Source: an uncultured Candidatus Saccharibacteria bacterium
GTDB taxonomy: Bacteria > Patescibacteriota > Minisyncoccia > Minisyncoccales > GWA2-38-27
NCBI GenBank assembly: GCA_964394985.1
Contig: CAYMZK010000001.1
Coordinates: forward strand, 63,957 to 127,956
Direction of reading: 5' to 3'
DNA: 64,000 nucleotides
Shown: piece by piece, positions 16,597 through 61,973 of the stretch
Layout of the letters: each line of letters starts with the position of its first letter
Numbering within the stretch: position 1 is the stretch's first letter
Made by a program: the position numbers and the translations under genes
Notes under the pieces: model-generated
Databases searched by the model: none
Told to the model about the DNA's origin: nothing
Seen by the model: the letters and a program-made list of their open reading frames with translations, nothing else

Positions 16597-16711
16597 GAAC
16601 ATTGTAAGGGAGCGATCTACTTTCGCGCAAAGCACTATCATCGACCTTAAGAGATTTCACTTCCGTGTTCGGAATGGGAACGGGTGGAGCACTCTCAGTA
16701 TTACCCCCTTA
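16597..16711 (-). rRNA. rrf: 5S ribosomal RNA
   Basis: Minus strand contains CCACCCGUUCCCAUUCCGAACACGGAAGUGAAA. Terminal helix ttgtaaggg/cccttacaa. Confidence 0.8.
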
Positions 16712-17624: not shown

Positions 17625-18117
17625 GATATTGCCTTAATATTTTATTGTCCTCAAGTATATTGTACCATTTGAATCTTAGGACTGTAAAGATTAATGGTCA
17701 CTGCAACAATAAAACAATGAAGGTTTCATCGTTATTAGTCGGTTTGTCATCATAGATTGCTCTATGAAGTAGCAATTTCTTACTAAGACCAACTCCACTC
17801 AAGATTCGACGCCTGCAGTAGATAGGGACCAACCTGTCTCACGACGGTCTGACATATTAATCTTGTATTACTACAAGTACGGACTATATCTTTCCTTTTT
17901 TACAAGGACTAGCGTATTGTAATAGTTTGTACCTATTACCTCGTTTTAAAAAACTCAGTCTCTACGGGGACAAATTTATATCTCATTGAATCTGGGATAT
18001 AGAAAATTGTCTTCCCACGATATCATCCATTATTTCATTATATCATGAAATAATTAGGACTTCACCGTTATTAGCTAGTTTTATCTGGGCTCATGTTCAC
18101 TTACCCAGCTCGCGTGA

Positions 18118-18150
<33 letters not shown>

Positions 18151-19046
18151 GCGGTTCCACCCCCAGGATGCGCCGAGCCGACATCGCTGTCTTTGTTTTC
18201 TTCTATTTCTAGAAGGATCGGACTATATCTTCACCCAGTTGCAATCAACAACTTAGGGGCTGACGTATTATAGAAGGTTTAAAATCTTCCATCTGCTCTA
18301 TTTAGAGCAAGTCTCTACGGGGTCATTACCCAATGATGAGTAAGACTTCCCACGGTATTACCCATTATTTTATTATACCATAAAATAATTAGGGCTTCAC
18401 CGTTATAAGTCAGTTTTTTCGTCTCATTATTTAATGAGATATGATGTTACTATCATAGCACCCCGATATGTTAAGGTGCCGAACAGTGCCGTTGATATGG
18501 ACTCTCGGGCACTACTAGCCTGTTATCCCCGGGGTAACTTTTAGCTGATAATCTTCGAATTTTCTAAAAAAATTCGTCGGTTCACTAAGTTCTAGTTTCC
18601 TAACTGCGCAACAAATACGTTTTGCAGTAAAGCTGGCTTATGGCTTTGTCCGACCATTCCGATTTCCATCCGGAATTAGCCAACCTTTAAGCTTCTCCAT
18701 TACACTTTAGGAGAAAAGTGCCCCACTTAAACTACCCATTAAACACTGTCCTCCGAAAAAATCAGAGTTAGAATTAAGCCTTTAAAAGAGTGGTATTTCA
18801 CTGGCGACTCCGCTCCAACCGAAATCGGAGTTTCAAAGTCTCCCACCTATGCTACGCATCTAAAAACAAAACCCAATATCTAACTATAGTAAAGCTCCCG
18901 GGGTCTTTCCGTCTAGCTGCAGGTAACCGGCATCTTTACCGGTATTGCATTTTCACCGAGCGGTTCTTGGAGACAGTCCTCCAGTCGTGAAGCCTTTCAT
19001 GCGGGCCAGAACTTCATGTTAATTCCATTATTTCTAATGGCATAGA

Positions 19047-19511
19047 CTATATCTTCATCTCATTAAAAGAATCAAGAATCTTCTTTTTGTTGTATATTCG
19101 TTTTCCAGAAGAATTCATTACAGATACTAAATCCATAATTTCGATTATCCCTTTTTTAGTTAAATGATCTCCGTTTTTCATCTTTCGGCAAATAATTTCA
19201 AAAGTTTCAAAATCTTTTTGCTTGCTAGATAATAATGGATATCTTTTAAAATGGGGGATAATTTTTGTTAATAGAGCATTAAGATTTCTCGTTTCAAATT
19301 TTAAAGTTTTATCACAAACATTTTTTCTGATAAAGCCACACTTGAAATAATTTTTAATTAATCTTAATACTTCTGCTCTATTTTCATTTTGAGCTACTGA
19401 AAAACCAGCTACAACTTCCCAACGAAGTTTATTCTTATTTCGCGGACGAATAGAGACGCAAAAGCATCCCTCTCCATCTATATATCCGCTAATATATGAT
19501 TCTAAATTCAT
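19047..19511 (-). CDS. intron-encoded LAGLIDADG homing endonuclease
   Basis: YISGYIDGEGCFCVSI motif; located inside the 23S gene. Confidence 0.8.
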   Translation of the reverse strand: MNLESYISGYIDGEGCFCVSIRPRNKNKLRWEVVAGFSVAQNENRAEVLRLIKNYFKCGFIRKNVCDKTLKFETRNLNALLTKIIPHFKRYPLLSSKQKDFETFEIICRKMKNGDHLTKKGIIEIMDLVSVMNSSGKRIYNKKKILDSFNEMKI

Positions 19512-19844
19512 AATAAGAGTCGGCGTTTTATGATGGTTAATTTACTCCCCACCATCTTAACTAGATAGTTAAAGTCGTTACGGGGTCATTTAAGACTTCC
19601 CACGGTATTACCCATTACTTTATTATACCATAAAATAATTAGGGCTTCACCGTTATAAGCCGAATTCCTACTAGAAATCACTTTCTAGACAGGCAATTTC
19701 TTACCTGGCAAGAGATTACGCTACCTTTGGACGGTTATAGTTCATATACCGTATTTCCCTATATCGCTATAAGGCTTGGACTATATCTTCACCCACTCCC
19801 GTGATGGGAGTTAGGGGCTTGACGTGTAGTCTCTGAGGATTCTT

Positions 19845-20360
19845 CTAATAAGAGCTCAAGATTTGTTTCTTGGAGTATTTCCGTTCTCGGCCGACTAGGA
19901 TAAGATCTCTTAACTTTAAGATTTCTTCCATGCCGGTTTTTTTGAGATGTCTCTTCTTTTTAAGTATGTCTGTGATTTTACAAAAAACTTCAAACACTTT
20001 TTTCTTATTCTCTGATAACAGAGGATAATTTCTGAAAAAAGGAATGACAATTTTTATAATATCTTCCAGTTTTCTTGTTTCAAAATAACATATCCCATCC
20101 TTACGATAACGAATTGTTCCACAATTTAAGAATTTCTTAAATATTTCAGGAACCGTATCGTCTTTCTGAGAAATATTGAACGATAATGAAACCTTCCATC
20201 CATACCTATAATCATCTCTTTTGATTAGAGAGACATTAAAACTTCCTTCTCCATCCGCAAATCCACTCAAATAATAACCGAGGCTCTTACTAGCAGTCTT
20301 TCCTGCTGATTGTCCGCAATTGTACATTTTCACTGCCATAATCTTACTATTATTATACAA
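19845..20360 (-). CDS. intron-encoded LAGLIDADG homing endonuclease
   Basis: YLSGFADGEGSFNVSL motif; located inside the 23S gene. Confidence 0.8.
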   Translation of the reverse strand: MYNNSKIMAVKMYNCGQSAGKTASKSLGYYLSGFADGEGSFNVSLIKRDDYRYGWKVSLSFNISQKDDTVPEIFKKFLNCGTIRYRKDGICYFETRKLEDIIKIVIPFFRNYPLLSENKKKVFEVFCKITDILKKKRHLKKTGMEEILKLRDLILVGRERKYSKKQILSSY

Positions 20361-21822
20361 GATAACGGCGAGTAGTACAATATGCCCGGAGTTTCCAGCA
20401 TATGGTCAAGTTATTTTTTCTAAGAATTACTTCTTAGTGCGGCAACTTTCTTACCGCCGACGTTCACTGGCGCTTCGAGCAGTCAGCCCAAGTGATAAAT
20501 CACTAGGACCGCCACTGTTAACGTTCCAGCACTGGTCAGGCCTCAACCCCTATACATCTTCTTACGAATTAAGCAGGGATCTGTGTTTTTGATAAACAGT
20601 CGCCAGAGGTCTTTCGCTGCGGCCTCGCTTAAGCGAGGCAAGGCATATCCCGAAGTTACGCCTGCTGTTTTGCCGAGTTCCTTCAAGAACTTTCACTCGT
20701 TCACCTTAGTACACTAATACCAACCCACCTGTGTCGGTTTGCGGTACGGATTTCATATCCCTAACTTTTAAGAACTTTTCCAGGTAGCTTGATCACACAA
20801 GTTTGCTTCATCCGAAGAATCAGCTCAACTGCAAATCCAATAATGCACCTTGTTTCACAAACTACGTCATCCTTAAAAAAAGATATGAAAGGGCCGGAAT
20901 ATTAACCGGCTGTCCATCCCTTACTACCCTTCGGTAGCAAAGTTAGGACCGCCTAACCCTTGGCTGATTGCCATTGCCAAGGAAACCTTGGGTTTTCGGT
21001 GTGCGGGGCTTTCACCCGCATTGCGGTTACTCATGCCAACATTCTCTCTTCTTAACGCTCCACCAAACCTCACGATTTAGCTTCAGTGCATTAAGAATGC
21101 TCCCCTACCGATTATTGTAAACAATAATCCCTTATCTTCGGCATATAACTTGAGTCCCGTAAATTTTTGGCGCAAAATTCCTTAGCTAGTAAGCTGTTAC
21201 GCACTTTTTGAAAGATAGCTGCTTCTAAGCTAACTTCCTAGCTATCAATGGAGTTTCACTTCCTTCAAAACACTTAGTTATAATTTAGGGGCCTTAGATG
21301 AAGATCTGGGCTGTTTCCCTTTCGACCATGGAGCTTAGCCCCCACAGTCTAACTGTTTGTAAACATTTTCCGGCATTCGGAGTTTGATTGGAAGATCCGA
21401 GCGAAAGCCCAAGAAATTCCATTCAGTGCTCTACCTCCAGAAAACTATATACAAATGCTAGCCCTAAAGCTATTTCGGGGAGAACCAGCTATTACCAAGC
21501 TCGATTAGCTTTTCACTCCTTACCACAACTCATCCCAGAGTATTGCACGGCTCAAGGGTTCGGGCCTCCTTCTATCTTTCGATAGAGTTCACCCTGGTCA
21601 TGGCAAGCTCGCTTGGCTTCGGGTCTTAAGCATTCTCTCAATTGTTCGCGCTTTTAACACTCGCTTTCGCTACGCCTCAATCCCGGAAGGATTCAGACAA
21701 AGAAAACACTTAAACTCGTTGGCTCATTCTTCAATAGGCACGCCATCACCCCGCTAAAAGCGGAGCTCTGACTCCTTGTAAGCAAAATGGTTTCAGGTAC
21801 TATTTCACCGCCCTCACCGGGC

Positions 21823-21862
<40 letters not shown>

Positions 21863-22602
21863 AGATATCGTAGTATTTAGCCTTGGCCGATTAGTCCGGC
21901 CTGTTTCCTACAGGGTTTTCTTTCCCCATAGTACTCAAGTAAAATAACAAGGAGCACGAATAAATTTTTAAGTACAGGACTATTACCTTCTATGGTCACC
22001 CTTTCCAGGGATGTTCCTCTAACCTATTCGCCTTTTTATTCTCCCTCGGCAAACATTCTATTTCCCAAAAAGAGAAATAGAATACTCCCGACGTTATTCC
22101 CTTACAACCCCACATTAAAAAATATGGTTTGGGCTTTTCCCTTTTCGCTCGCCGCTACTTGGGGAATAAAATTATTTTTCTTTTCCTCCGCTTACTGGGA
22201 TGTTTCACTTCAGCGGGTTCGCCATCCGACATACATCGGATTAATATGGGTTTACCATATTGCGTTTACGCATTCGGAAATCTCCGGGTCAAAGGTTGCT
22301 AAACACCTCACCGAAGCTTATCGCAGTCACGCCACGTCCTTCATCGCCTTGATATCCCTAGGCATCCACCATTTGCTCTTAATAATGTTGGCTAATAATT
22401 AATAATTGTAATTGCTAGACAGTATTCAATTGACAACGTTCTTACCCATTCAGGATAAATAAAAAACCGCTTGGGGAGCGATTATTCGGACATACTATAA
22501 AATTCAGACTATATCCTACTCCCTTAGTTTTTTATATTTTATTTTCTTTATCATTGCACTATCAATCTTAACAAAACCAAGAAAGAGTGTCAATAGCAAA
22601 AA

Positions 22603-25152: not shown

Positions 25153-25929
25153 TTATTTTTGAGAATTAAGTGTTGCACTTGAAGATTGAATGCAGCGTAC
25201 CTTTAATTCTATTCCAATAGGAATCTTTTTAAATCTATTGATTGTTTTTTGCTTTGTTAGTTCAGCTGTGGCCCTTCCTAATTTATCAGCTAAGATAAAT
25301 CCTGATTTTCTCTCAACGTGAGTAAGAATATGTTGTCTATCTTTTCCTAGGATAGTATCTCCTTCCCAGTCTCCAATTCTTGCCCTTTGATTTACAATCT
25401 CTGGTCGAGTATCAATTCTTCTCTTTTTAAGCTTCTCTCGCTCTTTCTCACGTATTCTAGTGCCATATCTACGTCGATACTTACCTTTTTGACATCTCAA
25501 ATATTTAACCAGATCTTTTCTTTCATTGTAGATATATTTGTAAATAGTATCTTTCCCAATATATTTCTTTTTATGGTTTTCATTCCATTTGCCAGCTATT
25601 TGATCCGGAGACCAATATTTCTTTAATTTCCTAATAATGTATTTTCTTAAAGATTTATCATTCTCTATCTTTCTAAATCTAGCATTAGCTTCAAGTCTTT
25701 TCTCTTTAGCTAATCTTTTAGATTTACTTACATAATACTTTCCATTTATTCCTTCTCCTCGTTTACGTTCTCGCCAGAGAGTAGTCCGACTTTTTCTTAA
25801 AAGCTTAGCTATTTCTTTCTTCTTTGCTTTAGTTCTTAACAGAACAGATAGCTGATTTTTCTGTTCTGGGGTAAAATGTTTGTAGGGCATGTTGTTTATC
25901 AAGTTAGTTATTAATTCCTTAATAATCAT
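25153..25929 (-). pseudogene. IS30-family transposase, C-terminally truncated (DDE domain largely missing)
   Basis: HTH region plus RIGDWEGDTILGK, an IS30-type motif. The protein stops about 40 aa later, so most of the catalytic domain is absent. The likely true start is MIIKE at 25929. The ORF-track extension to 26154 is hydrophobic junk. Confidence 0.65.
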
Positions 25930-25983
25930 TTTACTTGAAAACACTTGCCCTTTTAAGTTACCTTGATGTTTCACTTCGGAGTA

Positions 25984-26052
25984 GAATGTACCTACAAAAG
26001 ATTGACAAATCAAGAAAAAAGATGTAAGTTTGTATATTAACAGGAAATAGTT
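25984..26052. repeat. left copy of a ~65-bp inverted repeat (partner at 29072-29133)
   Basis: acaaaagattgacaaatcaagaaaaaagatgtaagtttgtatattaacaggaaatag matches the reverse complement of 29072-29133 with about 5 mismatches. Contains TTGACA-17nt-TAAGTT reading toward the flanked genes. Confidence 0.7.
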
Positions 26053-26098
26053 TCTTATTAAAAACAGTACTTTAACAAATAAATAGGAGGTATAAGCT

Positions 26099-26368
26099 AT
26101 GCAACGATCTTCAAAAGAGATTAAAGCACGGTGTGCTTGCATCCTCAGCAGCAAGAGTATTGTTACTCTTGTGGAAGCAAGCAGTAGTCCATCGGCTGCC
26201 TATGAGATGGTTTTTGCGGAAAGCAAAGACATTTTAATGGCAAAAGCTAGCAGATGGCTTGCGGTATTGCGTCGGAATTACCCCACCGAGTATCGTAGAC
26301 TCGTTCCAGCCCAACTCGGCCACGTCAGTAATGACACGGTACAGACAGAAAAGGAGACAAGGTTATGA
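26099..26368 (+). CDS. small hypothetical protein, translationally coupled to the PheRS-like gene
   Basis: AGGAGG sits 8 nt upstream of the ATG. The stop overlaps the next start (ATGA). GC-rich like the rest of the cassette. Confidence 0.4.
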   Translation: MQRSSKEIKARCACILSSKSIVTLVEASSSPSAAYEMVFAESKDILMAKASRWLAVLRRNYPTEYRRLVPAQLGHVSNDTVQTEKETRL

Positions 26369-27480: not shown

Positions 27481-27551
27481 TTGCCTGCTTATGCGGTAAA
27501 CTACATCATGAGGTTATGGACAAAAAATGTCTGTAGCCTCTTTTTTAATAT

Positions 27552-27585
27552 TAAAACCCCGTGTCAGTTTCCTGACACGAGGTTA
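27552..27585. terminator. bidirectional terminator between convergent aaRS-like genes
   Basis: aaaaccccgtgtcag-tttc-ctgacacgaggtt. Confidence 0.5.
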
Positions 27586-27587
27586 AG

Positions 27588-29036
27588 TTAAAATACTGGG
27601 AAAAGTTCGACATCCCTTATATCCTTTGCGTTAAGCAAAAGCATAAGAAGACGTTCCATCCCCATGCCAATTCCTCTGCAAGGAGGAAGCCCAAATTTCA
27701 TCGCTTCGATGATATCTTTGTTAATATCTCTATTCTGATCATCTCTGCGATAAGATAGCTGTTCCTCCATTCGGTGTTTGATAACCCTAGGATCACGCTC
27801 CGGGTTAACTAAGTCAGCAACCAGCATTCCATTAATTACAAGCAAGGTCTCATCGATAGTTGAACCATCGTCATTGACTTTGAAAAGCGGAGATTGGGCT
27901 GCCGGCAAATTTCTTAGAAAAACAGGTCCAGTGATGTTGGACATCATATGCGCATACAGTGACGTAGTCACTGTATACTTGTTCAACTTTGCGGGATGAG
28001 TAATTCCTGCTTTGTCTAGTAGATGCACGAGTTCTTCGATAGGACGTGATTCGTCATACCGGAGACCTGTGCATTTTTCGAGCTCATCATTAAAGTCACA
28101 TGATGGCCATTCGCCAGTGCAGTCAATCGACCCTTCAGTAGTTGGAATCGATATTGAACCGTAAAGTTGGACAAGAATTTCACATATCATGTCCCGCATC
28201 AGATTCTCCATTTCTTCCCTCGTCGCATATGCTCGATACAGCTCAAGAATCGTGAACTGGGGAAGCATGTCTGCAGTTGCACCCTGATTCCTGAATGATT
28301 TGCCGATCTCAAATACTTTTGAAAAACCAGCAATAATCAGTTTTCTAAGAAACAACTCGGACGTCAACCTCAGATACATATCCTTGTCATGTTCGGTCAC
28401 GTGCGTAACAAAAGGATCAGCCAACCCTGCTTCAAAGCTTTCCTGAAGCAATGTCATACTTAGCTCCTCATAGCCGTTGCTATAGAGGAACTGACGGATC
28501 ACTCTGAAGACTGTTGAACATTTGCGAAAGTGCAGAATCTTTTCTCGGTCTCGGATCATTTGAAGATGTCGATGAGCATACAAATTTGACCTCTTACAGA
28601 AATCGATATTGCTGTCATAGACATCTCCTGTTGCTTTGGAAAGTAACAAGACTTTCTCGCCAAGAAAAACATCGCCATTGGCTGTGCCAATCTTCACACC
28701 GTTCAACACCACGATGTCTCCATAATGAATCATGAAGTTTACCATGTTAATGTTTTTGGGTGTTCGAACAAGAAATGCCGGGATGGATGAACCGTTTCCT
28801 TCAATCCTTTCGAAATTGATGACTTCTTTGTCATACAGCTTGCTGAATACTCCGAGTTTGGAGATTTTACCAGTATTATCGGAAAGCATCAACCTCCCGA
28901 CAAGTGTAGCTCTTTCACCATTCCGAAGATTACCAAATGCATCGACTTCGATTGATCCCCTTGGTGCCTCGCGGCGATACGCAAAAGAATCATTTTCGAG
29001 GGCAAAAACCCTCTTTCTCTCGCTTTTTTTGGCCAT
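27588..29036 (-). CDS. class-II lysyl-tRNA synthetase-like protein with divergent active-site residues
   Basis: N-terminal OB-fold-like segment. The segment DMYLRLTSELFLRKLIIAGFSKVFEIGKSFRNQGATADMLPQFTILELYRAY aligns to LysS motifs 1/2; GLPPCRGIGMGMERLLMLLL..IRDVELFP aligns to motif 3. Several normally invariant residues are substituted. GGAGGTG SD. GC-rich. Confidence 0.7.
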   Translation of the reverse strand: MAKKSERKRVFALENDSFAYRREAPRGSIEVDAFGNLRNGERATLVGRLMLSDNTGKISKLGVFSKLYDKEVINFERIEGNGSSIPAFLVRTPKNINMVNFMIHYGDIVVLNGVKIGTANGDVFLGEKVLLLSKATGDVYDSNIDFCKRSNLYAHRHLQMIRDREKILHFRKCSTVFRVIRQFLYSNGYEELSMTLLQESFEAGLADPFVTHVTEHDKDMYLRLTSELFLRKLIIAGFSKVFEIGKSFRNQGATADMLPQFTILELYRAYATREEMENLMRDMICEILVQLYGSISIPTTEGSIDCTGEWPSCDFNDELEKCTGLRYDESRPIEELVHLLDKAGITHPAKLNKYTVTTSLYAHMMSNITGPVFLRNLPAAQSPLFKVNDDGSTIDETLLVINGMLVADLVNPERDPRVIKHRMEEQLSYRRDDQNRDINKDIIEAMKFGLPPCRGIGMGMERLLMLLLNAKDIRDVELFPVF

Positions 29037-29146: not shown

Positions 29147-29686
29147 CTAATTCTTTTTAAAAATATCGTATTTAAAATCCTTGTATGTCATAGATGGACG
29201 CGGCCCAGTGCTATTTTGATATTTTCCCTCGTATAAAACTATGTCACCCAAGGGAACCCAAAAACTTACTTGGGCTATCAGCATGCCCGGGTATAACCTG
29301 ACAGGAAGAGTTGCATACAATTGGAATGTTGTAACTCCATGAGAGCCTATATCAATTAGGTCAGCGGTGACATGAACAAATAAACCCATTCTTGCCGTGC
29401 CAGATTTACCATGTATTAAGGGAACATAGAAATCACTACCTATACTCTCTCTGGAATGTCCCAACACAAAATCACCGGCATTAAGTACTAACCCATCCTC
29501 AGGAATAGTTATCTCTTCATAAGATGCTTGGCGTTTCGGATCAATTATGTCTTGTTTGTACCGAACAATTGTGTTTCCAAGTGATAAATCGTATGAATTA
29601 GTCGTTACACGGATTTTGTCAAATGGATCGATGTCAATTTTTCTTTTTTTAACTTCTACTATTATTTTTTTACCAGTGAGTATCAT
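29147..29686 (-). CDS. dCTP deaminase/dUTPase-superfamily paralog, probably catalytically degenerate
   Basis: Same fold signature as the upstream paralog (GMLIAQVSFW; HGKSGTARMGLFVHVTADLID). The conserved Arg/Ser of GRSS and the Glu of LEF are replaced (GKSGTAR; FQLYA). Confidence 0.55.
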   Translation of the reverse strand: MILTGKKIIVEVKKRKIDIDPFDKIRVTTNSYDLSLGNTIVRYKQDIIDPKRQASYEEITIPEDGLVLNAGDFVLGHSRESIGSDFYVPLIHGKSGTARMGLFVHVTADLIDIGSHGVTTFQLYATLPVRLYPGMLIAQVSFWVPLGDIVLYEGKYQNSTGPRPSMTYKDFKYDIFKKN

Positions 29687-30201
29687 ATACTTTGGTGTTT
29701 GATTAACGGTACGTAAGATTCTTGTGGGTGATTGAGATGTCCATATCTTCCGTCATATTTTCTCACTGTTCCAAAATTCTTCCAGAAAGATACCTGCCCA
29801 ATGATCATTCCTGGGTATAATTTAATTGGTATTGCGGCAACAATTTCCAATGTCCATTTATGCTCGGAAGTCGTATGACCAAGATTGGCTGATGCCTGCA
29901 AAAATAAACCGTATCTACCCATAGAGCTTCTTCCGATTAGAGACATAGCATATTTTGAACTGCCAATCACTTCTTTGGTGGTAGCCAGGTACATTTTTCT
30001 TGGTTCCAAAACATACCCATCTTCGGGCATTTTTACTTCCTTAAATAGAGCTTTTTTACCATCAAACCCATTAAAGACCTTAATAGTTGAATCGAGTCGG
30101 TAATTGTAACTATTTGGATTAACCTGATTTTGGGAAAACGGCTCAATAACAATATTTCTAGAATTAATCTCTTCTTTGATTTTACTTCCGGTTAAAATCA
30201 T
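29683..30201 (-). CDS. dCTP deaminase (Dcd) family protein
   Basis: MILTGSKIKEE...IEPF N-terminus. GRSSMGRYGL, TLEIVAA and PGMIIGQVSFW align to the Dcd catalytic region. 4-nt overlap with the next gene. Confidence 0.65.
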   Translation of the reverse strand: MILTGSKIKEEINSRNIVIEPFSQNQVNPNSYNYRLDSTIKVFNGFDGKKALFKEVKMPEDGYVLEPRKMYLATTKEVIGSSKYAMSLIGRSSMGRYGLFLQASANLGHTTSEHKWTLEIVAAIPIKLYPGMIIGQVSFWKNFGTVRKYDGRYGHLNHPQESYVPLIKHQSI

Positions 30202-30203
30202 AA

Positions 30204-31028
30204 TTAAAATAATTCAACAAATCTGTTGGGATATACATTTTTTCTATACCTTAAAACCAAGACGCTATACATCTGATATGGACGCAGATCATTCGACATT
30301 TTTTTGACTTCATAAAGTCTGTTATACATGGTTTTATAAACATCCTTGTCTTCAATTTTTAACATCTTACATGCACGGTCTATTGTACTTTTACAGTAAT
30401 AATGAAGCTCATCCTCTGTTTCTTGAACTAGATCATTTCGCTCTTCGAATACAACCTCAAGCTTGTTGTACAATTTCATAATCTCTTTGTATGGAACGGA
30501 TGTCGGTGTAATTTCAAATACTTTTTGTGCTATCTTGATCAATGCTTCTGGCATCGGTTTTGTCACATAAAAAGGCGATGCTAAAATATAACCACCATCG
30601 GTCAGCATACTTATGCATTTTTCTAGCATTTTTACAGGATCAGGAAAGAATCCAAGTGATGCCCCAACCACTATATGAGTAAATTGTTTTTTTGTTTCGA
30701 ATTTGTAGCCGTCCGCAACTTTATAGGAAAGATTTATATTAGGAGCATATTTTTCTTTATTATAATTAGCCATTTTTACAGACTTTACCGAAAGGTCAAA
30801 ACCTTCTCCCTTACACCCTGAAAGCAATGCCAGCTCTCGCGAAGAAAAACCAGTAGTACAGGCTATTTCTAATAAATTAGATTTTTTATTCAGATCGGAA
30901 AAGCGAGCCCATTTTGAAAGAGTGACGTACGATCCAGGCAAGACATTCCATTGATTAATTAAACCGACAAAATCCGTGTAAGAAAGATTTTTGATGTAAT
31001 CTGGTGTAATCGATGATTCTTTTTTCAT
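30204..31028 (-). CDS. class I SAM-dependent methyltransferase-fold protein (MccD-like by size and context)
   Basis: Motif I LLEIACTTGFSS, acidic post-I residue (GFD), motif LTDGGYIL; 274 aa. Confidence 0.55.
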   Translation of the reverse strand: MKKESSITPDYIKNLSYTDFVGLINQWNVLPGSYVTLSKWARFSDLNKKSNLLEIACTTGFSSRELALLSGCKGEGFDLSVKSVKMANYNKEKYAPNINLSYKVADGYKFETKKQFTHIVVGASLGFFPDPVKMLEKCISMLTDGGYILASPFYVTKPMPEALIKIAQKVFEITPTSVPYKEIMKLYNKLEVVFEERNDLVQETEDELHYYCKSTIDRACKMLKIEDKDVYKTMYNRLYEVKKMSNDLRPYQMYSVLVLRYRKNVYPNRFVELF

Positions 31029-31106: not shown

Positions 31107-32279
31107 TTAATTTGGCACAACGATAAAATCACTCTCCCTTATTTTTTTAGAGTAGCAACCATAACCCCAGATATCCCAAGTCGTGCATAGATTGCCCCAC
31201 ATATTACACCCGATTTCTTTTTTTGAAGGGTTAGATATGTTAACCAGCGGAAAGTATTCATATTCAAAACGTTGCCAGCCCACCATATTTACTCCACCAT
31301 CTAGAACCACATTGTTATCATCTTTCCTATCTGCAACTGATAAAACTACAAACATAGAATCATTACAAATAATTCTTCCTGGTTCTGAGTAATACGTGGT
31401 ATCTAAAATCGGGCTTAAATAGGTTCGAATTGCCGTGCCTATCCTTTTTGCATATGCTTCAATCTTTATAGCATTACGGACCAGATAATCATGTCCTTGT
31501 TTAGTTTTTTTTATGATGCCCTCCGATTCGTAGACTTCGAATCCTCCTCCAAAATCAATATACTTAATCTTTCTCAGATCGTCCGTTTTAATCTTATTCT
31601 TAAGATAGATACCAAGCTCTTTGATAGTATTCTCGTAAAAAGAAGCGTCCTTATTTCTCGACATATGAAAATGTATTCCGCTGAGATCGATAAAAGGATA
31701 TTTTTTGGCTCTTTCCCAGAACTTTTTTAGATTTGTTATATGAATGCCATATTTTTTCCAGTCTCCAGATAAATCCGTATGCACTCTGATTCCTGCTTTG
31801 ATCTTGTTTTTAAGATGATTGGTTAATCTACCAAGTTTATCCAACTCACTAAAACTATCCATATTGATGGTAATGACTGATGAGTATTTTAGGGCATGCT
31901 TTAAATCATCCTCTGTTTTACCAGGACTAAAATACAAGATATCCTTACATCCAGCCTCAATGGCCATATCTATCTCTCTAGGACTACCAACATCCAAACC
32001 AAGACCTTTTTCTACGACATATTTAATGATGAAAGGATGATGATTAATCTTCATGGCGTAATAAGCATTGAATGAGGGTAATTCTTTTTTGAAAGAATTT
32101 AAAAACAAGTCGGTGGAATCATTAAGAGTTTTTTCGTCAAAAACGTAGAAAGGGGTCTTATATTTATTGGTCAGATTTAAAATGCCTCTTTTATTTTTGA
32201 GGACGCAACTGACTACATGATAAAGTTTATTTTCTTTATTGGACAGTATTTTATTTGATTTTATGCCGGTATTTTTCAT
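31107..32279 (-). CDS. fold-III PLP-dependent decarboxylase (Orn/DAP/carboxynorspermidine decarboxylase family; MccE N-domain-like)
   Basis: TPFYVFDEKTL...NAYYAMKINHHPFIIKYVVEKGLGLDVGSPREIDMAIEAG matches the N-terminal TIM-barrel signature with the PLP-binding Lys in YAMK. FGGGFEV glycine-rich loop. Confidence 0.7.
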   Translation of the reverse strand: MKNTGIKSNKILSNKENKLYHVVSCVLKNKRGILNLTNKYKTPFYVFDEKTLNDSTDLFLNSFKKELPSFNAYYAMKINHHPFIIKYVVEKGLGLDVGSPREIDMAIEAGCKDILYFSPGKTEDDLKHALKYSSVITINMDSFSELDKLGRLTNHLKNKIKAGIRVHTDLSGDWKKYGIHITNLKKFWERAKKYPFIDLSGIHFHMSRNKDASFYENTIKELGIYLKNKIKTDDLRKIKYIDFGGGFEVYESEGIIKKTKQGHDYLVRNAIKIEAYAKRIGTAIRTYLSPILDTTYYSEPGRIICNDSMFVVLSVADRKDDNNVVLDGGVNMVGWQRFEYEYFPLVNISNPSKKEIGCNMWGNLCTTWDIWGYGCYSKKIRESDFIVVPN

Positions 32280-32297: not shown

Positions 32298-33305
32298 CTA
32301 TACTACAGCTTTTTTGAAAGTTATTCGTTTTTCTTTTGTGTTAATTTCGGCAATTCCTCCATTTGGTATAGTTATCAAAGGATCAGAATGTCCAAAATCT
32401 ACGTTATAAAACACTGGAAACTTAGCGTCAGAAAAATACTCTTTAAACATATCTTTCAGAGAATCCTCTGGCGAGAAACTGGATTGTTCGGTAAATCTCC
32501 CCACAACTAAACCTGCGATTTTATCGAACCACCCGAGCTGCTTGCATTGACAAAGAAACCTATCAATATGAGATGGCGTACTTGTTTCATCCTCTTCAAT
32601 AAAAAGGATTTTACTCGTCATATCGGGTAAATACTGAGTTCCTTGTAAAATCAATAAAGTTTGAAGGTTGCCAACAACCACCTCACCGATCGCATCCCCC
32701 TGATTAAATACCTTTATACCCTGGTTAGCTTTTTTAATGCGATGATCATTGTCTTTTCTTAAGAAATAAAGGTCGTCAGCGTATTCTTTAGATGGTTCAA
32801 TCGTTATGTCTTCTCGAGGCTCAATACACATTTTTTCAAAATAATCCCATGTGTAATCGAATGGTTCTGGTTTTGCGAAAGAAATAACCCCGGGTCCGGA
32901 GAATGTGATCAATCCCGTTTTAGTTGTAATGGCGGTTGTTAATGCTGTCACATCAGAATAACCAATAAAAATTTTTGGATTCTTCTTGATTAGTTCATAA
33001 TCTAATTGATCAAGAAGTTGATTGGTATTAAAACCACCCCAGAAAGCCATAATACATCCTATGTCATCTCTCTTTGCGAAATTATGAATATCCTCAATTC
33101 TAAAAGAGGCTGTTCCGGCTGTATGTTTTTGTGTGAGCAGTTTTACGGAACGACCTTCGACAATTGAAAATCCTTTACTTTTTAAATACTCATAACCTCT
33201 TTTAATAGTATTTTCGGGACACACGCCAGCGACAGGATCAGCCGGAGCAATAATGCCCATCGATTTATTTTTATCAAGCCTTGGAGGTAATATTTTTTTC
33301 ATCAT
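32298..33305 (-). CDS. S66 family LD-carboxypeptidase-like serine peptidase (LdcA/MccF family)
   Basis: MGIIAPADPV start, FWGGFNTNQLL, and IFIGYSDVTAL with the nucleophilic Ser in a GxSD context; 335 aa. Confidence 0.7.
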   Translation of the reverse strand: MMKKILPPRLDKNKSMGIIAPADPVAGVCPENTIKRGYEYLKSKGFSIVEGRSVKLLTQKHTAGTASFRIEDIHNFAKRDDIGCIMAFWGGFNTNQLLDQLDYELIKKNPKIFIGYSDVTALTTAITTKTGLITFSGPGVISFAKPEPFDYTWDYFEKMCIEPREDITIEPSKEYADDLYFLRKDNDHRIKKANQGIKVFNQGDAIGEVVVGNLQTLLILQGTQYLPDMTSKILFIEEDETSTPSHIDRFLCQCKQLGWFDKIAGLVVGRFTEQSSFSPEDSLKDMFKEYFSDAKFPVFYNVDFGHSDPLITIPNGGIAEINTKEKRITFKKAVV

Positions 33306-35776: not shown

Positions 35777-36364
35777 TTAATTTGATTTAAATATTTCTTC
35801 TCCTTTTTTTAATTGAACCTCCAATTCAAAAACTATCTCACTCTTTAATCTTTCTTTCAAAACCTTAAATACATTTTTGTGAAACTCCATTCTTTGCTCA
35901 ATAGAAGAATTAAATTTATTGAAAGCCGACAATCCCCTTTCTTTATACGCTTCAATCATGGAATTTATATTATGTATTTTATCCGCCGCACAAACCATTA
36001 AAGATTCTTGACTGTCAGTTTTTAATCTTTCAACGTAATTATTCTTTCTATCTTTCCAAGACTCTTTTTCATCTTTATTTTCATTATTTGGATCATTTTC
36101 TTCTGAAACTCCTTTCACTATTTCTGTTATCTTCTCTCCAAAATCCCTAATCATATCTGATTCATAATAATTAGGAACATCTTCCAAGACATCGTGAAGC
36201 AAAGCACCAATAATAACATCTTCATCGTCAGTGTAATTAGACACAATCATAGCCACTGAATAAGGATGAACAATAAAAGGAACATCCCCTTCTTTTCTTT
36301 CCTGATCTTTATGTAAGACAGCAGCTTTAATTATCGCTTTTTGAATATTTTTTGTTAATTTCAT
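35777..36364 (-). CDS. HD-domain hydrolase resembling the (p)ppGpp-hydrolase domain of RelA/SpoT (small alarmone hydrolase-like)
   Basis: AAVLHKDQERKEGDVPFIVHPYSVAMIV...ALLHDVLEDV aligns with the SpoT HD domain (H...HD...D); 195 aa. Confidence 0.6.
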   Translation of the reverse strand: MKLTKNIQKAIIKAAVLHKDQERKEGDVPFIVHPYSVAMIVSNYTDDEDVIIGALLHDVLEDVPNYYESDMIRDFGEKITEIVKGVSEENDPNNENKDEKESWKDRKNNYVERLKTDSQESLMVCAADKIHNINSMIEAYKERGLSAFNKFNSSIEQRMEFHKNVFKVLKERLKSEIVFELEVQLKKGEEIFKSN

Positions 36365-41382: not shown

Positions 41383-44058
41383 CTATGTTTTACTAAAATT
41401 TTTCACCAATTCCTCAAAATTCTTCGGGGCGTATTTTTCATAGTCCTCTTGTTTGATATAAAGAGCGGTGAATTTAACTTTATTTTGTACGGAATTTATA
41501 TCATCGCACCATTGATAAAGGCGTTTTATCTTCTCTACATCGTCTAAGTCTTCTCGCCCTTTTGTTTCCACGATATAAATTTCCTTTTCGGAAACTTTTA
41601 CAAAAAAGTCGGGATAATAATCTTTGATATTTCCGTCCGCGTCTTTGTAATCAATCTTGAAATGCACCGCAAAATAATTTTTGGCGTAGGAAACTATGTC
41701 ATCGCATTCTTCAAGAAAATTGGCAAACTGAAGCTCAAAATAGCTGTCGCCAACAATTTTATTGAACACGCTCTTTTTCGGCACAATAAAACCTTGTTCC
41801 TTAATAACAAATGGCCTTGATTTGCTGATTTTTATGTAGTCTTTTATTTCCGCTTCGCCTTTATCAACAACAGTCAGATCGTTAATTTCTTTTTTGAAAG
41901 TTTCAATAATCGTTTTTGTCGCTTCAAGCTCCGACAAATTCCGCAAGATATTCAAGTCTTCTAAATCAACCTTCTTATCAAAAAGATGATTGGTTACAAA
42001 CTCTTTTACTTTTTCATACAAAATATCATGTCCACCAACTAAGCGAAGCTCTTTTCTGATTATTTGTGCAAAGTAACCAACAACACTTTGATAATTGGGC
42101 ACAAAATCACTATCAAGCTCAGTGGTATGCGTTACTTCACCAGAAGCTATGTCCCGAAAAACAATTTCCTTTTTTTCCTTTTCGCTAAATTCTTTTATTT
42201 TCAGTTTCTTATGATTAAAACTTGCGGTGTTAAGCTCTGAAATATTTTTATATTCGCGATAAATCCTAGGGGTTAAAATCGGGATTTGAATATCTAGGCT
42301 CTCAATATCTTTTTTGGTATTTTCTTTATCCACTTCAACCACCAACGGAGCTTTTGGCTCTGTTCCTTCGCCCATTTTCTTTTTCTCAAGTTCAACGCCC
42401 TCGTTCTTAATAGACTCTACAAAATCCATAAAAGCGTCCGTTCCAACCACGCTTACATATTCCGTAACATCTGAAGTTCTATACATACGCCTCAAACCTC
42501 GTCCCAAAGTCTGTTCCGGCAAGATATTGCTCTTTGACGAATAAGGACGCAAGCCGACAATCGTAGTTACATTTTTTACATCCCAACCCTCTTTAAGCAT
42601 TAAAACCGAAACAATCGCTTTGTGCGGGCTTTCCCAATTATCAATCTCATTTGAGGCTTTTCTAAGCTCTTTTAATTCTTCCTCTTTTTTACCTGTTACT
42701 GTTTCCGAAATCTCACCATTATTTTTTGTGTGAATAGTTAAAACAGCGTCTTTAAATTCTGGATAGGTATTTTGCAGATATTCATTTACGTCATCACAGT
42801 TTTTTGTGTCGTCGGTCATTACGAAAAATACCGCTTTCTTGCCGAGTTTTTTATGTTCATCATAAACTTTTTTCCATTCAAGATAACCGAGATGAATATA
42901 ATCCTTGTATTTTTCCGTGAACTTTGCGCTTTTATGTTCTTGTAATTTGGCACGACTGGCAGAATCTGGAAGCACAGGGTGTTTTACAACGTCCTGATAA
43001 ATTGCCTCAACGAGTGGATAATCAGAAATTGTTTGTACAAAAATTGATCCGTTGTTGTGTTTTGGCGTGGCAGTAACATCAATCTGTAAAGATAAAAAAT
43101 TGTCTTTCATCTTCATTCTGTTGCTAATGTCTTCAATTGACTTAAACCACGCCAAACGCTCATCGTGGATATGATGTGCTTCGTCGTTTAGTACCATAAG
43201 TTCATCAACATCCCTCACAATTTCACCAATATTAACTTTTGAGTCGCTTGTCTTGGCAACGGGCTTATCTCCCAAAAAATAATCCATTGTATTTTCATCG
43301 TCAAAACTTGGAATATTATCTTTGCTGTTATAGACGCGATGAATATTGGTCAAAAAAATGTTTCCGGTTTTGCGAACAGTATTTATGTCGTCCTGCATAT
43401 GAATAGTAATTTGGAAATCATCTTTCCAGTTTTGTCCGCCGAAACCGTTATCAGGCAAGATCGGATCATCATAAAATATTTTAAGCCCTGTAAAGTCGGT
43501 TTTGATACGATCTAACACAATAATATTTGGAGTGATCAATAAAAAGTTTCTTGCCAGTTTTGAATCTTCTTCATACATTTTATGGAAATAACTCCAAGCT
43601 ATGAGCAAGCTCATCACTTTTGTTTTTCCGCTTCCTGTCGCCATTTTAATAACCAACCTAAGCCAGTCTTCCGGAAACATACTTGAAGAAACCGCACCGG
43701 AGCTGTCATAGCGAATAAGATCATACTTATCTTTTACTCCTGCAACTTCATAGAGATAAATGACTGTTTCAATCGCTTCTCTTTGCGCGAAGTAGTATTG
43801 AAAATTAACCATTCCGTCCGGTGTTTCCGTTGGGTGTTCAGTTTGAAACCACCATTGCAATAAAGCACGAGAAGTATCACTTACGCCTTCATAATTATTA
43901 TCACGCCATTTTTTTATTTCTTGCCGTAGCGTATGCACAAGAGGCGGAAGCAGTTTTTCATACCCCTTTTCCCGCAATGCTTCATCAGCCGGAAACCAAC
44001 GGATTTTTGGGTCAAGTATTGCATGCGGTGATTTTGGAAAATTTTTATGTAGTGCCAT
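41383..44058 (-). CDS. type III restriction enzyme Res subunit (SF2 helicase-nuclease)
   Basis: Walker A MATGSGKTKV and DEAH box LNDEAHHIHD; 891 aa. Confidence 0.8.
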   Translation of the reverse strand: MALHKNFPKSPHAILDPKIRWFPADEALREKGYEKLLPPLVHTLRQEIKKWRDNNYEGVSDTSRALLQWWFQTEHPTETPDGMVNFQYYFAQREAIETVIYLYEVAGVKDKYDLIRYDSSGAVSSSMFPEDWLRLVIKMATGSGKTKVMSLLIAWSYFHKMYEEDSKLARNFLLITPNIIVLDRIKTDFTGLKIFYDDPILPDNGFGGQNWKDDFQITIHMQDDINTVRKTGNIFLTNIHRVYNSKDNIPSFDDENTMDYFLGDKPVAKTSDSKVNIGEIVRDVDELMVLNDEAHHIHDERLAWFKSIEDISNRMKMKDNFLSLQIDVTATPKHNNGSIFVQTISDYPLVEAIYQDVVKHPVLPDSASRAKLQEHKSAKFTEKYKDYIHLGYLEWKKVYDEHKKLGKKAVFFVMTDDTKNCDDVNEYLQNTYPEFKDAVLTIHTKNNGEISETVTGKKEEELKELRKASNEIDNWESPHKAIVSVLMLKEGWDVKNVTTIVGLRPYSSKSNILPEQTLGRGLRRMYRTSDVTEYVSVVGTDAFMDFVESIKNEGVELEKKKMGEGTEPKAPLVVEVDKENTKKDIESLDIQIPILTPRIYREYKNISELNTASFNHKKLKIKEFSEKEKKEIVFRDIASGEVTHTTELDSDFVPNYQSVVGYFAQIIRKELRLVGGHDILYEKVKEFVTNHLFDKKVDLEDLNILRNLSELEATKTIIETFKKEINDLTVVDKGEAEIKDYIKISKSRPFVIKEQGFIVPKKSVFNKIVGDSYFELQFANFLEECDDIVSYAKNYFAVHFKIDYKDADGNIKDYYPDFFVKVSEKEIYIVETKGREDLDDVEKIKRLYQWCDDINSVQNKVKFTALYIKQEDYEKYAPKNFEELVKNFSKT

Positions 44059-44059
44059 A

Positions 44060-44248
44060 TTATTTATTGTTAAGCAATTCTAATATCTGATCTTGTTGCT
44101 TGATAATTAATTCCTGATTCTGCTTGTTTTGATCAAGTAGCTCCTGGTTTGTTTTTTGTATCATCTCAATCGATTTAGTTTTTTGAGAATATTCTTTATA
44201 TATCGCAGAATTTATATGAAAAGAATCAATGATTAAAGTAGCTACCAT
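44060..44248 (-). CDS. small hypothetical membrane protein
   Basis: 62 aa with one TM helix; sits between mod and res. Confidence 0.3.
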   Translation of the reverse strand: MVATLIIDSFHINSAIYKEYSQKTKSIEMIQKTNQELLDQNKQNQELIIKQQDQILELLNNK

Positions 44249-44383
44249 TACTACTAAAATTACAATAACACTAAGTAAAATAAAATTTACATCTTTAAAT
44301 CTAGAGTCTGTCTCTTTTTTAGTTCGGGTGCGGTAACGCCTCCGCTCTCAGGTATTTCAATTTGTGGTCTCTCTTTTTCCATA

Positions 44384-44596
44384 TCAATATATTCCAGTTA
44401 TGACATAGATATCATTTTCCACTCTTACCTCTAAATCTCTACCAATTAACACGGATGAATTTATGCCACCAAAGGAAACATTATTAAATCTAGCGCCGGG
44501 CCCAAATTGAACACCGCCAATTCTTATGGTTTTTTCTTTAGACGAAATACTACCATCCGAATGTACATTAAAGATTTGATGAAAATTTATACGCAT
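44384..44596 (-). CDS. small hypothetical protein
   Basis: 70 aa ORF between mod and res. Confidence 0.3.
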   Translation of the reverse strand: MRINFHQIFNVHSDGSISSKEKTIRIGGVQFGPGARFNNVSFGGINSSVLIGRDLEVRVENDIYVITGIY

Positions 44597-44599
44597 ATT

Positions 44600-60836: not shown

Positions 60837-61973
60837 TTATTTAATAAAAATATTAATGTAATTCTTGTATGCATAACTTCTGTCGTATGTTCCTTTCTCG
60901 TCTTGTGCATACAAAATTCCTATCTTTATAAACCTATCTATAACTTTTTGAGCCCCTGCACGAGTAAAACCTGTCCAATCCATGACTTTTTTTGTATTCA
61001 CAATTGGTGAACCAAAAAGTTTTTGCAATACCAAAACGCCACTCTCAGATTCTCTTTTTGCAAGAGTTTGTATTTTAAGTATATCGATATCTCTTAGTTT
61101 CCTAATCTGACTTGTTATTTCTATTGATTCTTCTGCCGTTTCAATAACACCATCAAGGAAGAAATCTGCCCAGCTCTCAACATTACCATCATGATAATCA
61201 TCAAGTTTTTGATAATACACCTTTTGGTGTTTTTTAAAATAAGAAGACAGAAACAAGACAGGGTTCTCCAATAGATTCCTATGACATAATAAAAGTGTTA
61301 TCAGCAAACGCCCGGTTCTTCCGTTACCATCCAAAAATGGATGTATGGTTTCAAATTGTGCGTGCATAATTCCAATGTGTAATAACGGGAGTACTTTTTC
61401 CTCTTCATGAAGAAACCTTTCCAAATCATTTAGCGTGCGTTGCATTTCATCAACAGGAGACGGAACAAAATGTGCGTTATCCGGTCTTGTGCCCCCGATC
61501 CAATTTTGAGTTTTTCTAAATTCACCTGGATCAGAAAAATGTGTAGCTCGCGCCCCGGTCATCAGCTCTTTATGTATTTCTCTTATTAATCGCAGAGACA
61601 GCGGTAAATCCTTAAGACGACTTAAACCGTAATTCATTGCTTTTATATAATACAAAATGTCATCAGCATCTGTATCGTCTACACTAATACCCGCGTCCTT
61701 TTCAAGAGCATCAATGATGGTCGCCTTTGTCCCTTCTATCTGCGCTGAAGAAGTCGCGTCTTTCGCCACGAACATTTTCAAAAAGAAATCAACATCAGGA
61801 AGAGCACTTTCTGTAGTAGTTCCATCAAGCTTACCTACCAAACGGTCTGCTTTAGCGATTTTTAGTAAAATGTTTTGAGGTATTTCAAAAAGTCCTTTTG
61901 GAGGGAAAGGATTAGGAATAAGAGCTGAATACCCTTCTTTTTGCTTTATTTTTTTACCTATTTCTGTATTCAT
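60837..61973 (-). CDS. Fic/DOC family protein
   Basis: Fic motif HPFLDGNGRTGRLL; 378 aa. Confidence 0.8.
   Translation of the reverse strand: MNTEIGKKIKQKEGYSALIPNPFPPKGLFEIPQNILLKIAKADRLVGKLDGTTTESALPDVDFFLKMFVAKDATSSAQIEGTKATIIDALEKDAGISVDDTDADDILYYIKAMNYGLSRLKDLPLSLRLIREIHKELMTGARATHFSDPGEFRKTQNWIGGTRPDNAHFVPSPVDEMQRTLNDLERFLHEEEKVLPLLHIGIMHAQFETIHPFLDGNGRTGRLLITLLLCHRNLLENPVLFLSSYFKKHQKVYYQKLDDYHDGNVESWADFFLDGVIETAEESIEITSQIRKLRDIDILKIQTLAKRESESGVLVLQKLFGSPIVNTKKVMDWTGFTRAGAQKVIDRFIKIGILYAQDEKGTYDRSYAYKNYINIFIK

Follow-up and report, generated by a model that had tools for sequence, protein, structure and literature searches.

Paralogues of aminoacyl-tRNA synthetases that act outside translation, among them EpmA, AsnA, HisZ and the cyclodipeptide synthases, have repeatedly revealed new chemistry. 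EpmA is a paralogue of lysyl-tRNA synthetase (LysRS) that has a non-tRNA role and keeps the catalytic residues. In microcin C biosynthesis and immunity, MccE1 decarboxylates the aminocarboxypropyl group to aminopropyl, MccF cuts the aminoacyl-nucleotide amide bond, and a carbamoyltransferase, MccY, is present in some mcc-like clusters (PMC8323819). We analysed a stretch of 64,000 nucleotides (the window) from an uncultured Candidatus Saccharibacteria bacterium (assembly GCA_964394985.1, contig CAYMZK010000001.1, positions 63,957 to 127,956 of the forward strand), in which the last gene of an operon with MccD and MccF homologues encodes a divergent LysRS-like protein. One side of its active site has been conserved and the other rebuilt, and five residues of the rebuilt side change with the type of operon in which the gene lies.

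The segment picked out in an initial annotation of the window corresponds exactly to one open reading frame (ORF), which starts with ATG. Pfam family tRNA-synt_2 (PF00152, class II Asp, Lys and Asn synthetases) covered residues 153-480 of the predicted protein (E = 2.4e-49), and the closest solved relative was the LysRS of G. stearothermophilus (PDB 3a74, E = 4.5e-52). An AlphaFold model computed with 31 family sequences (predicted local distance difference test 76, predicted template modelling score 0.64) contained a beta-barrel at residues 42-133 followed by the class II core, and the top matches of this model in a Foldseek search of the PDB were all LysRS (E about 3e-34, TM about 0.6). The alignment to LysS across motifs 1-3 and the oligonucleotide-binding (OB) fold had been called unmistakable, which overstates the degree of conservation in places. 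The motif 1 proline is gone (ETP to SMT), 15 residues are inserted in the OB fold, which also has a change of an invariant Arg to Asp (R77 to D53, given here and below as LysU mature numbering and window protein numbering), and the anticodon-binding OB domain PF01336 was not detected in a Pfam scan of the protein. Scores against the NCBIfam LysRS models were about half the cut-offs for NF001756 (264.2 bits, cut-off 468) and TIGR00499 (220 bits, cut-off 427.6), and reached 149.5 bits for NF009101 (cut-off 1026). The EpmA models TIGR00462 (115, cut-off 286.9) and NF006828 (110.9, cut-off 264) also scored below their cut-offs.

Seventy-three members of the family were aligned with 46 ordinary LysRS, one of which was E. 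coli LysU. The four altered strings quoted in the initial annotation are all present, FRNQG at residues 248-252, MLPQFT at 257-262, NLPAAQSPLF at 376-385 and NGMLVADLVNPERD at 402-415, and the assertion that substitutions lie at normally invariant positions proved correct: E264, H270, R412 and E421 occur in 45-46 of the 46 ordinary enzymes and are replaced in every one of the 73 members. E264 (46/46 in ordinary LysRS) is Q251 in 73/73, R412 (46/46) has undergone a charge reversal to E396 in 73/73, H270 (46/46) is Met, Thr or Lys at position 257, and E421 (45/46) is Leu or Pro at position 405. Further family changes are N271 to L258, E414 to L398, F426 to V410 and G216 to A203, while N424 and E428, invariant or nearly so in ordinary LysRS, read D/T408 and P/A412 in every member. 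None of the ATP/Mg2+ residues E264, H270, N271, E414 and E421 is retained in any of the 73 proteins, the window protein having Q251, M257, L258, L398 and L405 in their place. Since the substitutions are fixed across the family, they are not due to chance or sequencing error. Invariant in the family and in ordinary LysRS alike are E240/E227, R262/R249 (the motif 2 Arg, 73/73), E278/E265, Y280/Y267 and G473/G455; F274/F261 is Phe in 72/73 and 45/46, respectively. At R480/R462, 59 of the 73 members have the motif 3 Arg and the other 14 have His or Leu.

From the structures of LysU and LysS, we take the retained residues to be those that hold the alpha-amino and epsilon-amino groups of lysine (E227 for the former, E265 and Y267 for the side-chain amine), the carboxylate and alpha-phosphate (R249) and the adenine ring (F261, by base stacking); the replaced positions presumably hold Mg2+ and the beta and gamma phosphates and read adenine N6. 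The remodelling is one-sided: lysine, alpha-phosphate and adenine-ring residues are kept, and Mg2+/triphosphate residues are replaced, mostly by hydrophobic ones. Within the lysine pocket, E227, E265 and Y267 are invariant and N424, F426 and E428 have changed to Asp or Thr, Val, and Pro or Ala, suggesting a pocket that is kept but reshaped. L429, one residue past the lost E428, has become an invariant Glu (E413), and the side-chain amine of lysine may be gripped by E265, Y267 and this shifted acid. Another divergent LysRS-like protein, P0112 (481 amino acids), keeps FRNEG and HNPEFT and has ERAWLFAGGIFFADIYSDLTD in the second half-site (E414 to Trp, E421 to Phe, N424 to Asp, E428 to Asp), and its LysRS pocket seems to have been remodelled independently.

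The family is a small, isolated clade. A homologue search returned about 75 proteins at 41-92% identity, nearly all of 481-486 residues, beyond which scores dropped sharply to ordinary LysRS at about 31% identity, and an exhaustive HMMER search of 1.84 billion cluster representatives gave two full-length clusters at 50% identity and four fragments before the scores fell from 370 to 191 bits. The hosts are metagenome-assembled genomes of Saccharibacteria, Andersenbacteria, Uhrbacteria and other Patescibacteria, and a few copies lie on short contigs binned elsewhere. A scan of viral contigs contained no relative of the protein, and the possibility of a phage cargo gene was rejected on this ground. 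Comparison with the 92%-identical orthologue in locus L006 gave a dN/dS of 0.135 (0.06-0.15 for other cassette genes), and the gene is therefore under purifying selection, a working gene. The initial annotation had doubted that it was a simple housekeeping duplicate, and its scores far below the LysRS cut-offs, the loss of the Mg/ATP residues and the isolation of the clade all agree with that doubt; the role of the protein is probably not tRNA charging. NCBI labels the family 'amino acid--tRNA ligase-related protein'. Our literature searches returned nothing relevant on the LysRS-like paralogue, on its neighbour SrmL, or on the Candidate Phyla Radiation (CPR) or Patescibacteria in combination with microcin C; the operon context of the gene has not been described before, and no paper was found on the family or on SrmL.

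Genomic contexts were drawn from metagenome and genome collections, and 13 loci had readable flanks. In all 13, the LysRS-like gene is the last of an operon with genes for an MccD-like protein, an S66 (MccF-like) peptidase and a decarboxylase, an obligate linkage that persists among unrelated flanking genes. SrmL, a protein related to phenylalanyl-tRNA synthetase (PheRS), is encoded convergently in the adjacent position in 12 of the 13. Two arrangements were distinguished. Type A (ten loci including the window) has the order S66 peptidase, pyridoxal phosphate (PLP)-dependent decarboxylase of the ornithine/diaminopimelate (Orn/DAP) type, class I methyltransferase-fold protein, two successive dCTP deaminase (DCD)-like proteins and LysRS-like protein. 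Type B (three loci, L009, L083 and L084) begins with a class II core resembling asparaginyl-tRNA synthetase and AsnA (AsnRS/AsnA-like), followed by AdoMet_dc, a methyltransferase-fold protein, a carbon-nitrogen (CN) hydrolase, a NodU-type carbamoyltransferase, the S66 peptidase and the LysRS-like protein. When the 13 LysRS-like proteins of known context were compared, only five of 482 columns showed fixed differences between the types, namely (A to B, with the LysU position in brackets) V400I (416), L405P (421), D408T (424), G457A (475) and R462H (480). All five map to the former Mg/phosphate half-site, in its two strands and its motif 3 segment; the chance probability of this is about 2.5e-7 if some 25 positions are counted as half-site. 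The lysine half-site is identical in types A and B. The differences are not simply those of a deep split, because some pairs within type A are more diverged than pairs across the types: the type A protein of L014 is 55% identical to the window protein and the type B protein of L009 68%. No residue of SrmL is fixed differently between the types. A strictly conserved lysine half together with five type-specific residues in the remodelled half argues for a working ligand pocket rather than a dead one, and we read the pocket as functional, binding a constant lysine-like moiety and a second moiety that would be specific to the cassette.

The upstream genes connect the operon with microcin C. Among 72,556 plasmids, the best matches of the MccD-like protein, a predicted 3-amino-3-carboxypropyl transferase, were mccD of E. 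coli mcc operons, with 29% identity to MccD over 264 of 267 residues including the C-terminal extension (E = 6e-35); the methyltransferase-fold protein of type B gave an equally good full-length match (E = 2e-36), and each of the 17 sequences searched, which were the window and 16 cassette loci, contained an MccD homologue. The S66 protein shares 32% identity with MccF of E. coli (E = 7e-47), and its catalytic triad S117/E237/H306 aligns with S118/E243/H311 of MccF; the adenine-stacking W186 of MccF is not conserved in the alignment. In the PDB it ranked nearest to the MccF-like BA_5613 (E = 4e-62) and MccF (about 1e-45), followed by LdcA LD-carboxypeptidases (1e-14 to 7e-28). The PLP decarboxylase gave a weak match to residues 26-218 of MccE (24% identity over about 200 residues, E = 5e-8), and tblastn recovered an MccE-type decarboxylase in only two loci. 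The pyruvoyl enzyme AdoMet_dc of type B stands where type A has the PLP decarboxylase, each alongside an MccD-like gene, a non-orthologous replacement which suggests that the step conserved between the types is aminopropylation. Queries with E. coli MccB (E <= 1e-3) and with the major facilitator superfamily (MFS) exporter MccC gave no tblastn match in the window and the 16 cassette loci, and Pfam scans of the cassette genes contained no ThiF domain; without homologues of MccB and MccC, the cassette is therefore not a canonical mcc cluster. The suggestion that the gene belongs to a cassette of immunity or biosynthesis character gains substance from an operon that encodes homologues of MccD and MccF and, more weakly, of the MccE decarboxylase domain.

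These results lead us to favour, tentatively and at somewhat less than even odds, a reading in which the LysRS-like protein is a non-adenylating paralogue that recognises or transfers a lysine-type moiety within an operon for an aminopropylated aminoacyl-nucleotide-like compound. The protein would no longer activate lysine with ATP, and its old active site would serve as a binding or transfer pocket. The MccD-like transferase and the decarboxylase together would give aminopropylation, the MccF-like hydrolase would cleave aminoacyl-nucleotide amide bonds, and the operon would make or process an aminopropylated small molecule of this kind. The conserved half-site may then hold lysine or a lysine-like aminoalkyl group, and the remodelled half-site a cassette-specific phospho or nucleotide moiety; the protein would either couple the two, the activated amino acid then coming from a separate source such as Lys-tRNA or another ligase, or retain the product. 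Several observations weigh against such a role. The cassette has neither an MccB-type nucleotidyl transferase nor an exporter by tblastn, and no recognisable precursor peptide, although no search was made for MccA, whose 7-residue ORF is not reliably callable; a microcin-like product is therefore an analogy. AlphaFold confidence is low exactly in the motif 2 loop and in the loop at 194-208, which blocks three-dimensional mapping of the substitutions. A new invariant R414 and the invariant acids D395, E396 and E413 lie near the pocket and might conceivably allow a nucleotide chemistry that is altered but still catalytic. At low score, the upstream enzymes are also similar to enzymes of polyamine and murein-peptide metabolism. 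A much bolder conjecture, which we consider a long shot, is that modular cassettes of Patescibacteria produce synthetase poisons of an aminopropylated aminoacyl-nucleotide type, with no need of a ribosomal peptide or of MccB, using disabled synthetase paralogues as templating enzymes. A core of MccD-like protein, decarboxylase and MccF-like protein would be combined with the DCD pair or with the AsnRS-like core, carbamoyltransferase and CN-hydrolase, and the LysRS-like or an alanyl-tRNA synthetase (AlaRS)-like paralogue would bind a pre-activated amino acid (aminoacyl-tRNA or adenylate) in its retained amino-acid half-site and a modified nucleotide in the remodelled one, and would join them as a stable adduct. 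Such a scheme would mirror 'reaction hijacking' on the biosynthetic side and would be to class II what the cyclodipeptide synthases are to class I.

The invariant charged residues near the pocket bear on the idea that the protein is still an active ligase of altered chemistry, using another nucleotide or sparing the metal (Arg in place of Mg2+, as in HisRS) and joining lysine or a similar compound to an acceptor other than tRNA (for example, an amine of the cassette's nucleotide intermediate or a small protein), as EpmA or AsnA does. In its favour are R414, E396 and E413, which flank the pocket, and the retention of the Arg of motif 2, the stacking Phe and, in type A proteins, the Arg of motif 3. 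E264, a position that presumably reads adenine N6 in class II enzymes, is uniformly Gln, which could suit a base other than adenine; the cassette also encodes two (d)CTP-binding-type proteins, and the partner SrmL is called a ligase by the NCBIfam curators. Both near-universal class II Mg ligands are now Leu or Pro, however, family members differ at positions 398, 405 and 408, and every type B protein has His for the motif 3 Arg, a loss unexpected for an NTP-using class II enzyme, and we consider such a ligase unlikely. About equally doubtful is a non-catalytic pseudo-synthetase, either a decoy that confers stoichiometric immunity by sequestering a lysyl-adenylate-like toxin or a regulatory or specificity subunit like HisZ. 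The loss of catalytic residues with retention of those that hold the ligand, the co-encoded MccF-type immunity hydrolase and a pocket tuned to the cassette type are all in its favour, but conservation over the whole length of 482 residues, N-terminal domain included, is stricter than a simple decoy would call for, no regulatory partner enzyme was identified, and stoichiometric sequestration would be costly for cells with tiny genomes.

The low-score resemblances of the upstream enzymes raise the further alternative that the cassette is unconnected with aminoacyl-nucleotides and is a polyamine or murein-peptide/lysine salvage module, with the LysRS-like protein as a lysine or diamine sensor or carrier, the S66 protein as an LD-carboxypeptidase, the PLP enzyme as a DAP or ornithine decarboxylase, and the type B AdoMet_dc and CN-hydrolase as classical polyamine enzymes. 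The best NCBIfam names are indeed lysA (128 bits) and muramoyltetrapeptide carboxypeptidase (125 bits) and, in type B, S-adenosylmethionine decarboxylase and AguB-like amidase, the lysine pocket is conserved, and no exporter was found with MccC in tblastn. Yet those scores are all far below the family cut-offs, the S66 protein is much nearer to MccF and MccF-like proteins than to LdcA, the MccD match is full-length with the C-terminal extension in both cassette types, no search result pointed to a spermidine-type aminopropyl transferase, and such a pathway offers no role for the DCD pair; on balance salvage seems improbable. Resistance to an aminoacyl-adenylate mimic was one of three roles proposed initially, beside amino-acid transfer to a non-tRNA acceptor and a pseudo-enzyme, and would require a drug-insensitive, functional LysRS, a classical self-resistance synthetase that sustains translation while the cassette product or a neighbour's toxin blocks the housekeeping enzyme. 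Inhibitor clusters often carry a resistant copy of the target, as is generally known (reviewed in PMC8323819), and the LysRS domain order is full-length. The residues for adenylate formation are nevertheless missing in all members, the Mg glutamates and the motif 2 His and Asn being replaced throughout and the motif 3 Arg in 14 of 73; the motif 1 Pro is lost, the invariant OB-fold Arg is charge-reversed, the anticodon-binding fold has gained 15 residues, and scores are about half the LysRS cut-offs. Known resistant synthetases must still activate their amino acid. We therefore regard this as the least likely of the three proposed roles and as very improbable.

Coordinates of the features discussed. 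Positions refer to the window unless a locus identifier is given.
Feature	Coordinates	Strand	Remarks
LysRS-like protein, 482 aa	27588-29036	-	N-terminal modified OB fold and class II core
SrmL, PheS-related 'mystery ligase', 371 aa	26365-27480	+	NCBIfam NF051887, 400 bits (cut-off 300)
Terminator-like hairpin	27555-27584	-	13-bp stem, 7 G-C pairs, directly after LysRS-like stop codon
Terminator-like hairpin	27510-27540	+	13-bp stem then T run, after SrmL gene
Small ORF, 89 aa	26099-26368	+	Unannotated, no Pfam family; overlaps SrmL start codon by 4 nt
DCD2, dCTP deaminase-like	29147-29686	-	Catalytic Glu to Gln; 'LIDIG' and C-terminal lid motif kept
DCD1, dCTP deaminase-like	29683-30201	-	Catalytic Glu, Ser-Ser and Arg kept; 'IDPG' lost
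MccD-like class I SAM-dependent transferase	30204-31028	-	Homology to MccD; predicted 3-amino-3-carboxypropyl transfer
PLP-dependent Orn/DAP-type decarboxylase	31107-32279	-	Pfam PF02784 and PF00278; counterpart of MccE N-terminal domain
S66 serine peptidase, MccF type	32298-33305	-	First operon gene; PDB and MccF alignment
IS30-family transposase	25153-26154	-	NCBIfam NF033563, 114.8 bits (cut-off 80)
IS30 fragment	L006 7921-8064		92%-identical locus
Second monomeric PheRS-like gene, 380 aa	34316-35458	-	PheS core and FDX-ACB, mitochondrial-type
RelA/SpoT-type HD_4 hydrolase	35777-36364	-	
Type B AsnRS/AsnA-like core-only class II protein	L009 4139-5191; L083 2319-3371; L084 3120-4241		First cassette gene
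AlaRS-like cassettes	L080 6922-10976; L081 5659-15140; L082 5067-9849		AlaRS-like proteins in place of LysRS-like and SrmL pair
tRNA-Ile(UAU)	L004 1419-1494; L008 198-272		
Restriction-modification and Fic genes	41383-46750; 60837-61973; L014 3103-4161; L082 4028-4897; L075 14923-16759; L084 12220-13668		
23S rRNA gene	18026-22387	-	4,362 bases (model 2,925 positions)
LAGLIDADG homing endonuclease ORFs	19047-19511; 19845-20360		Pfam E 4.5e-25; 1.2e-22
5S rRNA	16604-16711		
Repeat ORF, 194 aa	22612-23222	-	No Pfam family

The two dCTP deaminase-like proteins have complementary changes of their active sites in eight loci (including the window, L001, L002, L004, L075 and L080-L082), which suggests an obligate hetero-oligomer with non-deaminase or partial chemistry. 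The core of MccD-like protein and DCD pair is also found with other synthetase paralogues, very divergent AlaRS-core-like proteins of 360-402 residues (L080, L081 and L082), in cassettes with or without a radical-SAM-like protein, extra methyltransferase or carbamoyltransferase; the system is therefore modular in its synthetase-like partner. In type B, the AsnRS/AsnA-like protein scored 176 bits with the asnS model and, by eye, has retained Arg/Glu in motif 2, the Mg-binding Asp/Glu and the Arg of motif 3, and it is a plausible candidate for the adenylating enzyme of these cassettes.

SrmL resembles monomeric PheRS of the mitochondrial type, and its close homologues have a C-terminal FDX-ACB domain. 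The motif 2 and motif 3 arginines are kept, the stacking Phe has become Pro, and acidic pocket residues ('ECGE') have been gained. SrmL also occurs without the cassette (L076 and L078), and the copy of L078, which lies beside canonical pheS and pheT, is 78% identical to that of the window. Like the LysRS-like gene, with which it travels, it is raised in G+C content, but it belongs to a different, PheRS-like lineage and is not tuned to the cassette type. The convergent spacer between the two genes is 107 bp long in the window and contains two hairpins, one for each gene. The 89-residue ORF ahead of SrmL has copies at 55-71% identity upstream of SrmL in L004, L006, L007, L008, L013, L075 and the cassette-less L078, with the conserved core 'SSSPSAAYEMVF...RWLAVLRR.YP.EY', and its product may be a partner or substrate of SrmL. 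The second PheRS-like gene of the window scored below both relevant cut-offs (pheS_mito 237, cut-off 258; SrmL 256, cut-off 300), so that its identity as the housekeeping PheRS was not confirmed; its motif 3 is one residue short ('GFGDRL'), and it adjoins an HD_4 hydrolase gene, as does the cassette-less SrmL of L078.

Base composition differs within the island. The G+C content is 0.43 for the LysRS-like gene and 0.49 for SrmL (0.44 and 0.54 at third codon positions), compared to 0.34-0.37 (about 0.30 at third positions) for the five upstream genes, and the same contrast of the two genes with their own cassette was seen in L004, L006, L007 and L008. The G+C content of SrmL is about 0.46-0.49 in host flanks that range from 0.30 to 0.55, and in L014, a cassette without SrmL, the LysRS-like gene is low in G+C. 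This contrast suggests that the LysRS-like gene and SrmL form a module with a separate transfer history. The IS30 transposase adjoins the SrmL end of the island and has a 5' extension of ambiguous coding status, and a fragment of this element lies at the same position in L006; the element marks the island boundary and its mobility. Restriction-modification and Fic-domain genes recur about 10-30 kb from the cassette in several genomes (ResIII helicase and N6/N4 methylase in the window; Type ISP or HsdM elsewhere), and the surroundings may be an island of mobile or defence genes. PADLOC defence models gave only a weak methyltransferase match (mad2).

Rfam at the gathering threshold reported only 23S and 5S rRNA in the window, and neither a T-box nor a riboswitch near the cassette. 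With ARAGORN, the window contained no tRNA, and no tRNA was conserved beside the cassettes; a dedicated tRNA as in the pyl system was rejected for this reason; tRNA-Ile(UAU) lies a few kb upstream of the cassette in 2 of 12 loci, probably by coincidence. The 23S rRNA gene is enlarged by insertions that encode two LAGLIDADG homing endonucleases, and such insertions are typical of Patescibacteria. Just beyond it, the 194-residue ORF has long GLA/VYGLAAGL-type repeats, mirrored on the plus strand by 'SPAASPYT' repeats.

The LysRS-like protein offers a natural experiment, in which half of an active site has been frozen, half has been rebuilt, and five residues track the operon type. Its hosts are ultra-small bacteria of the Patescibacteria/CPR, of which the secondary metabolism and host interactions are scarcely known. 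To our knowledge, no enzymes other than those of the MccD and MccF types carry out the aminopropylation and hydrolysis of aminoacyl-nucleotide antibiotics. Should the product of the cassette be a nucleotide compound directed at a synthetase, the cassette would represent a peptide-independent route to microcin C-like warheads and possibly a weapon or currency in episymbiosis; otherwise it is still an uncharacterised mobile eight-gene system, one component of which was flagged as a 'mystery ligase' by NCBI curators.

Compared to known systems, the protein is nearest to class II LysRS, its best match in sequence and fold. It shares with LysS, LysU and 3a74 the domain order, the motif 2 Arg, the stacking Phe, the equivalents of E240, E278 and Y280 and the GxGxGxxR frame of motif 3, but differs in its overall identity of about 30% and in the replacement of E264, H270, N271, R412, E414, E421, N424, F426 and E428. 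EpmA (PoxA/GenX), which lysylates elongation factor P, is likewise a LysRS-derived paralogue, but lacks the N-terminal domain, which spans 150 residues in the LysRS-like protein. As in HisZ and the catalytic-like domain of the PheRS beta-subunit, the class II fold is kept and residues for adenylate formation are lost; those proteins, however, have defined partner enzymes, whereas in the LysRS-like protein the amino-acid pocket is strictly conserved and the remodelled half co-varies with the operon type. The cyclodipeptide synthases, which use aminoacyl-tRNA, provide a conceptual parallel, a synthetase fold in secondary metabolism with the aminoacyl pocket kept and ATP binding dropped, although they are class I enzymes of Rossmann fold. 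With the microcin C operon, finally, the cassette shares full-length MccD and MccF homologues, a decarboxylase of the MccE1 fold and, in type B, a carbamoyltransferase, as MccY in some mcc-like clusters; in place of a ThiF-type MccB, an MccC exporter and a GNAT domain, which it lacks, it carries class II synthetase paralogues and DCD-like proteins.

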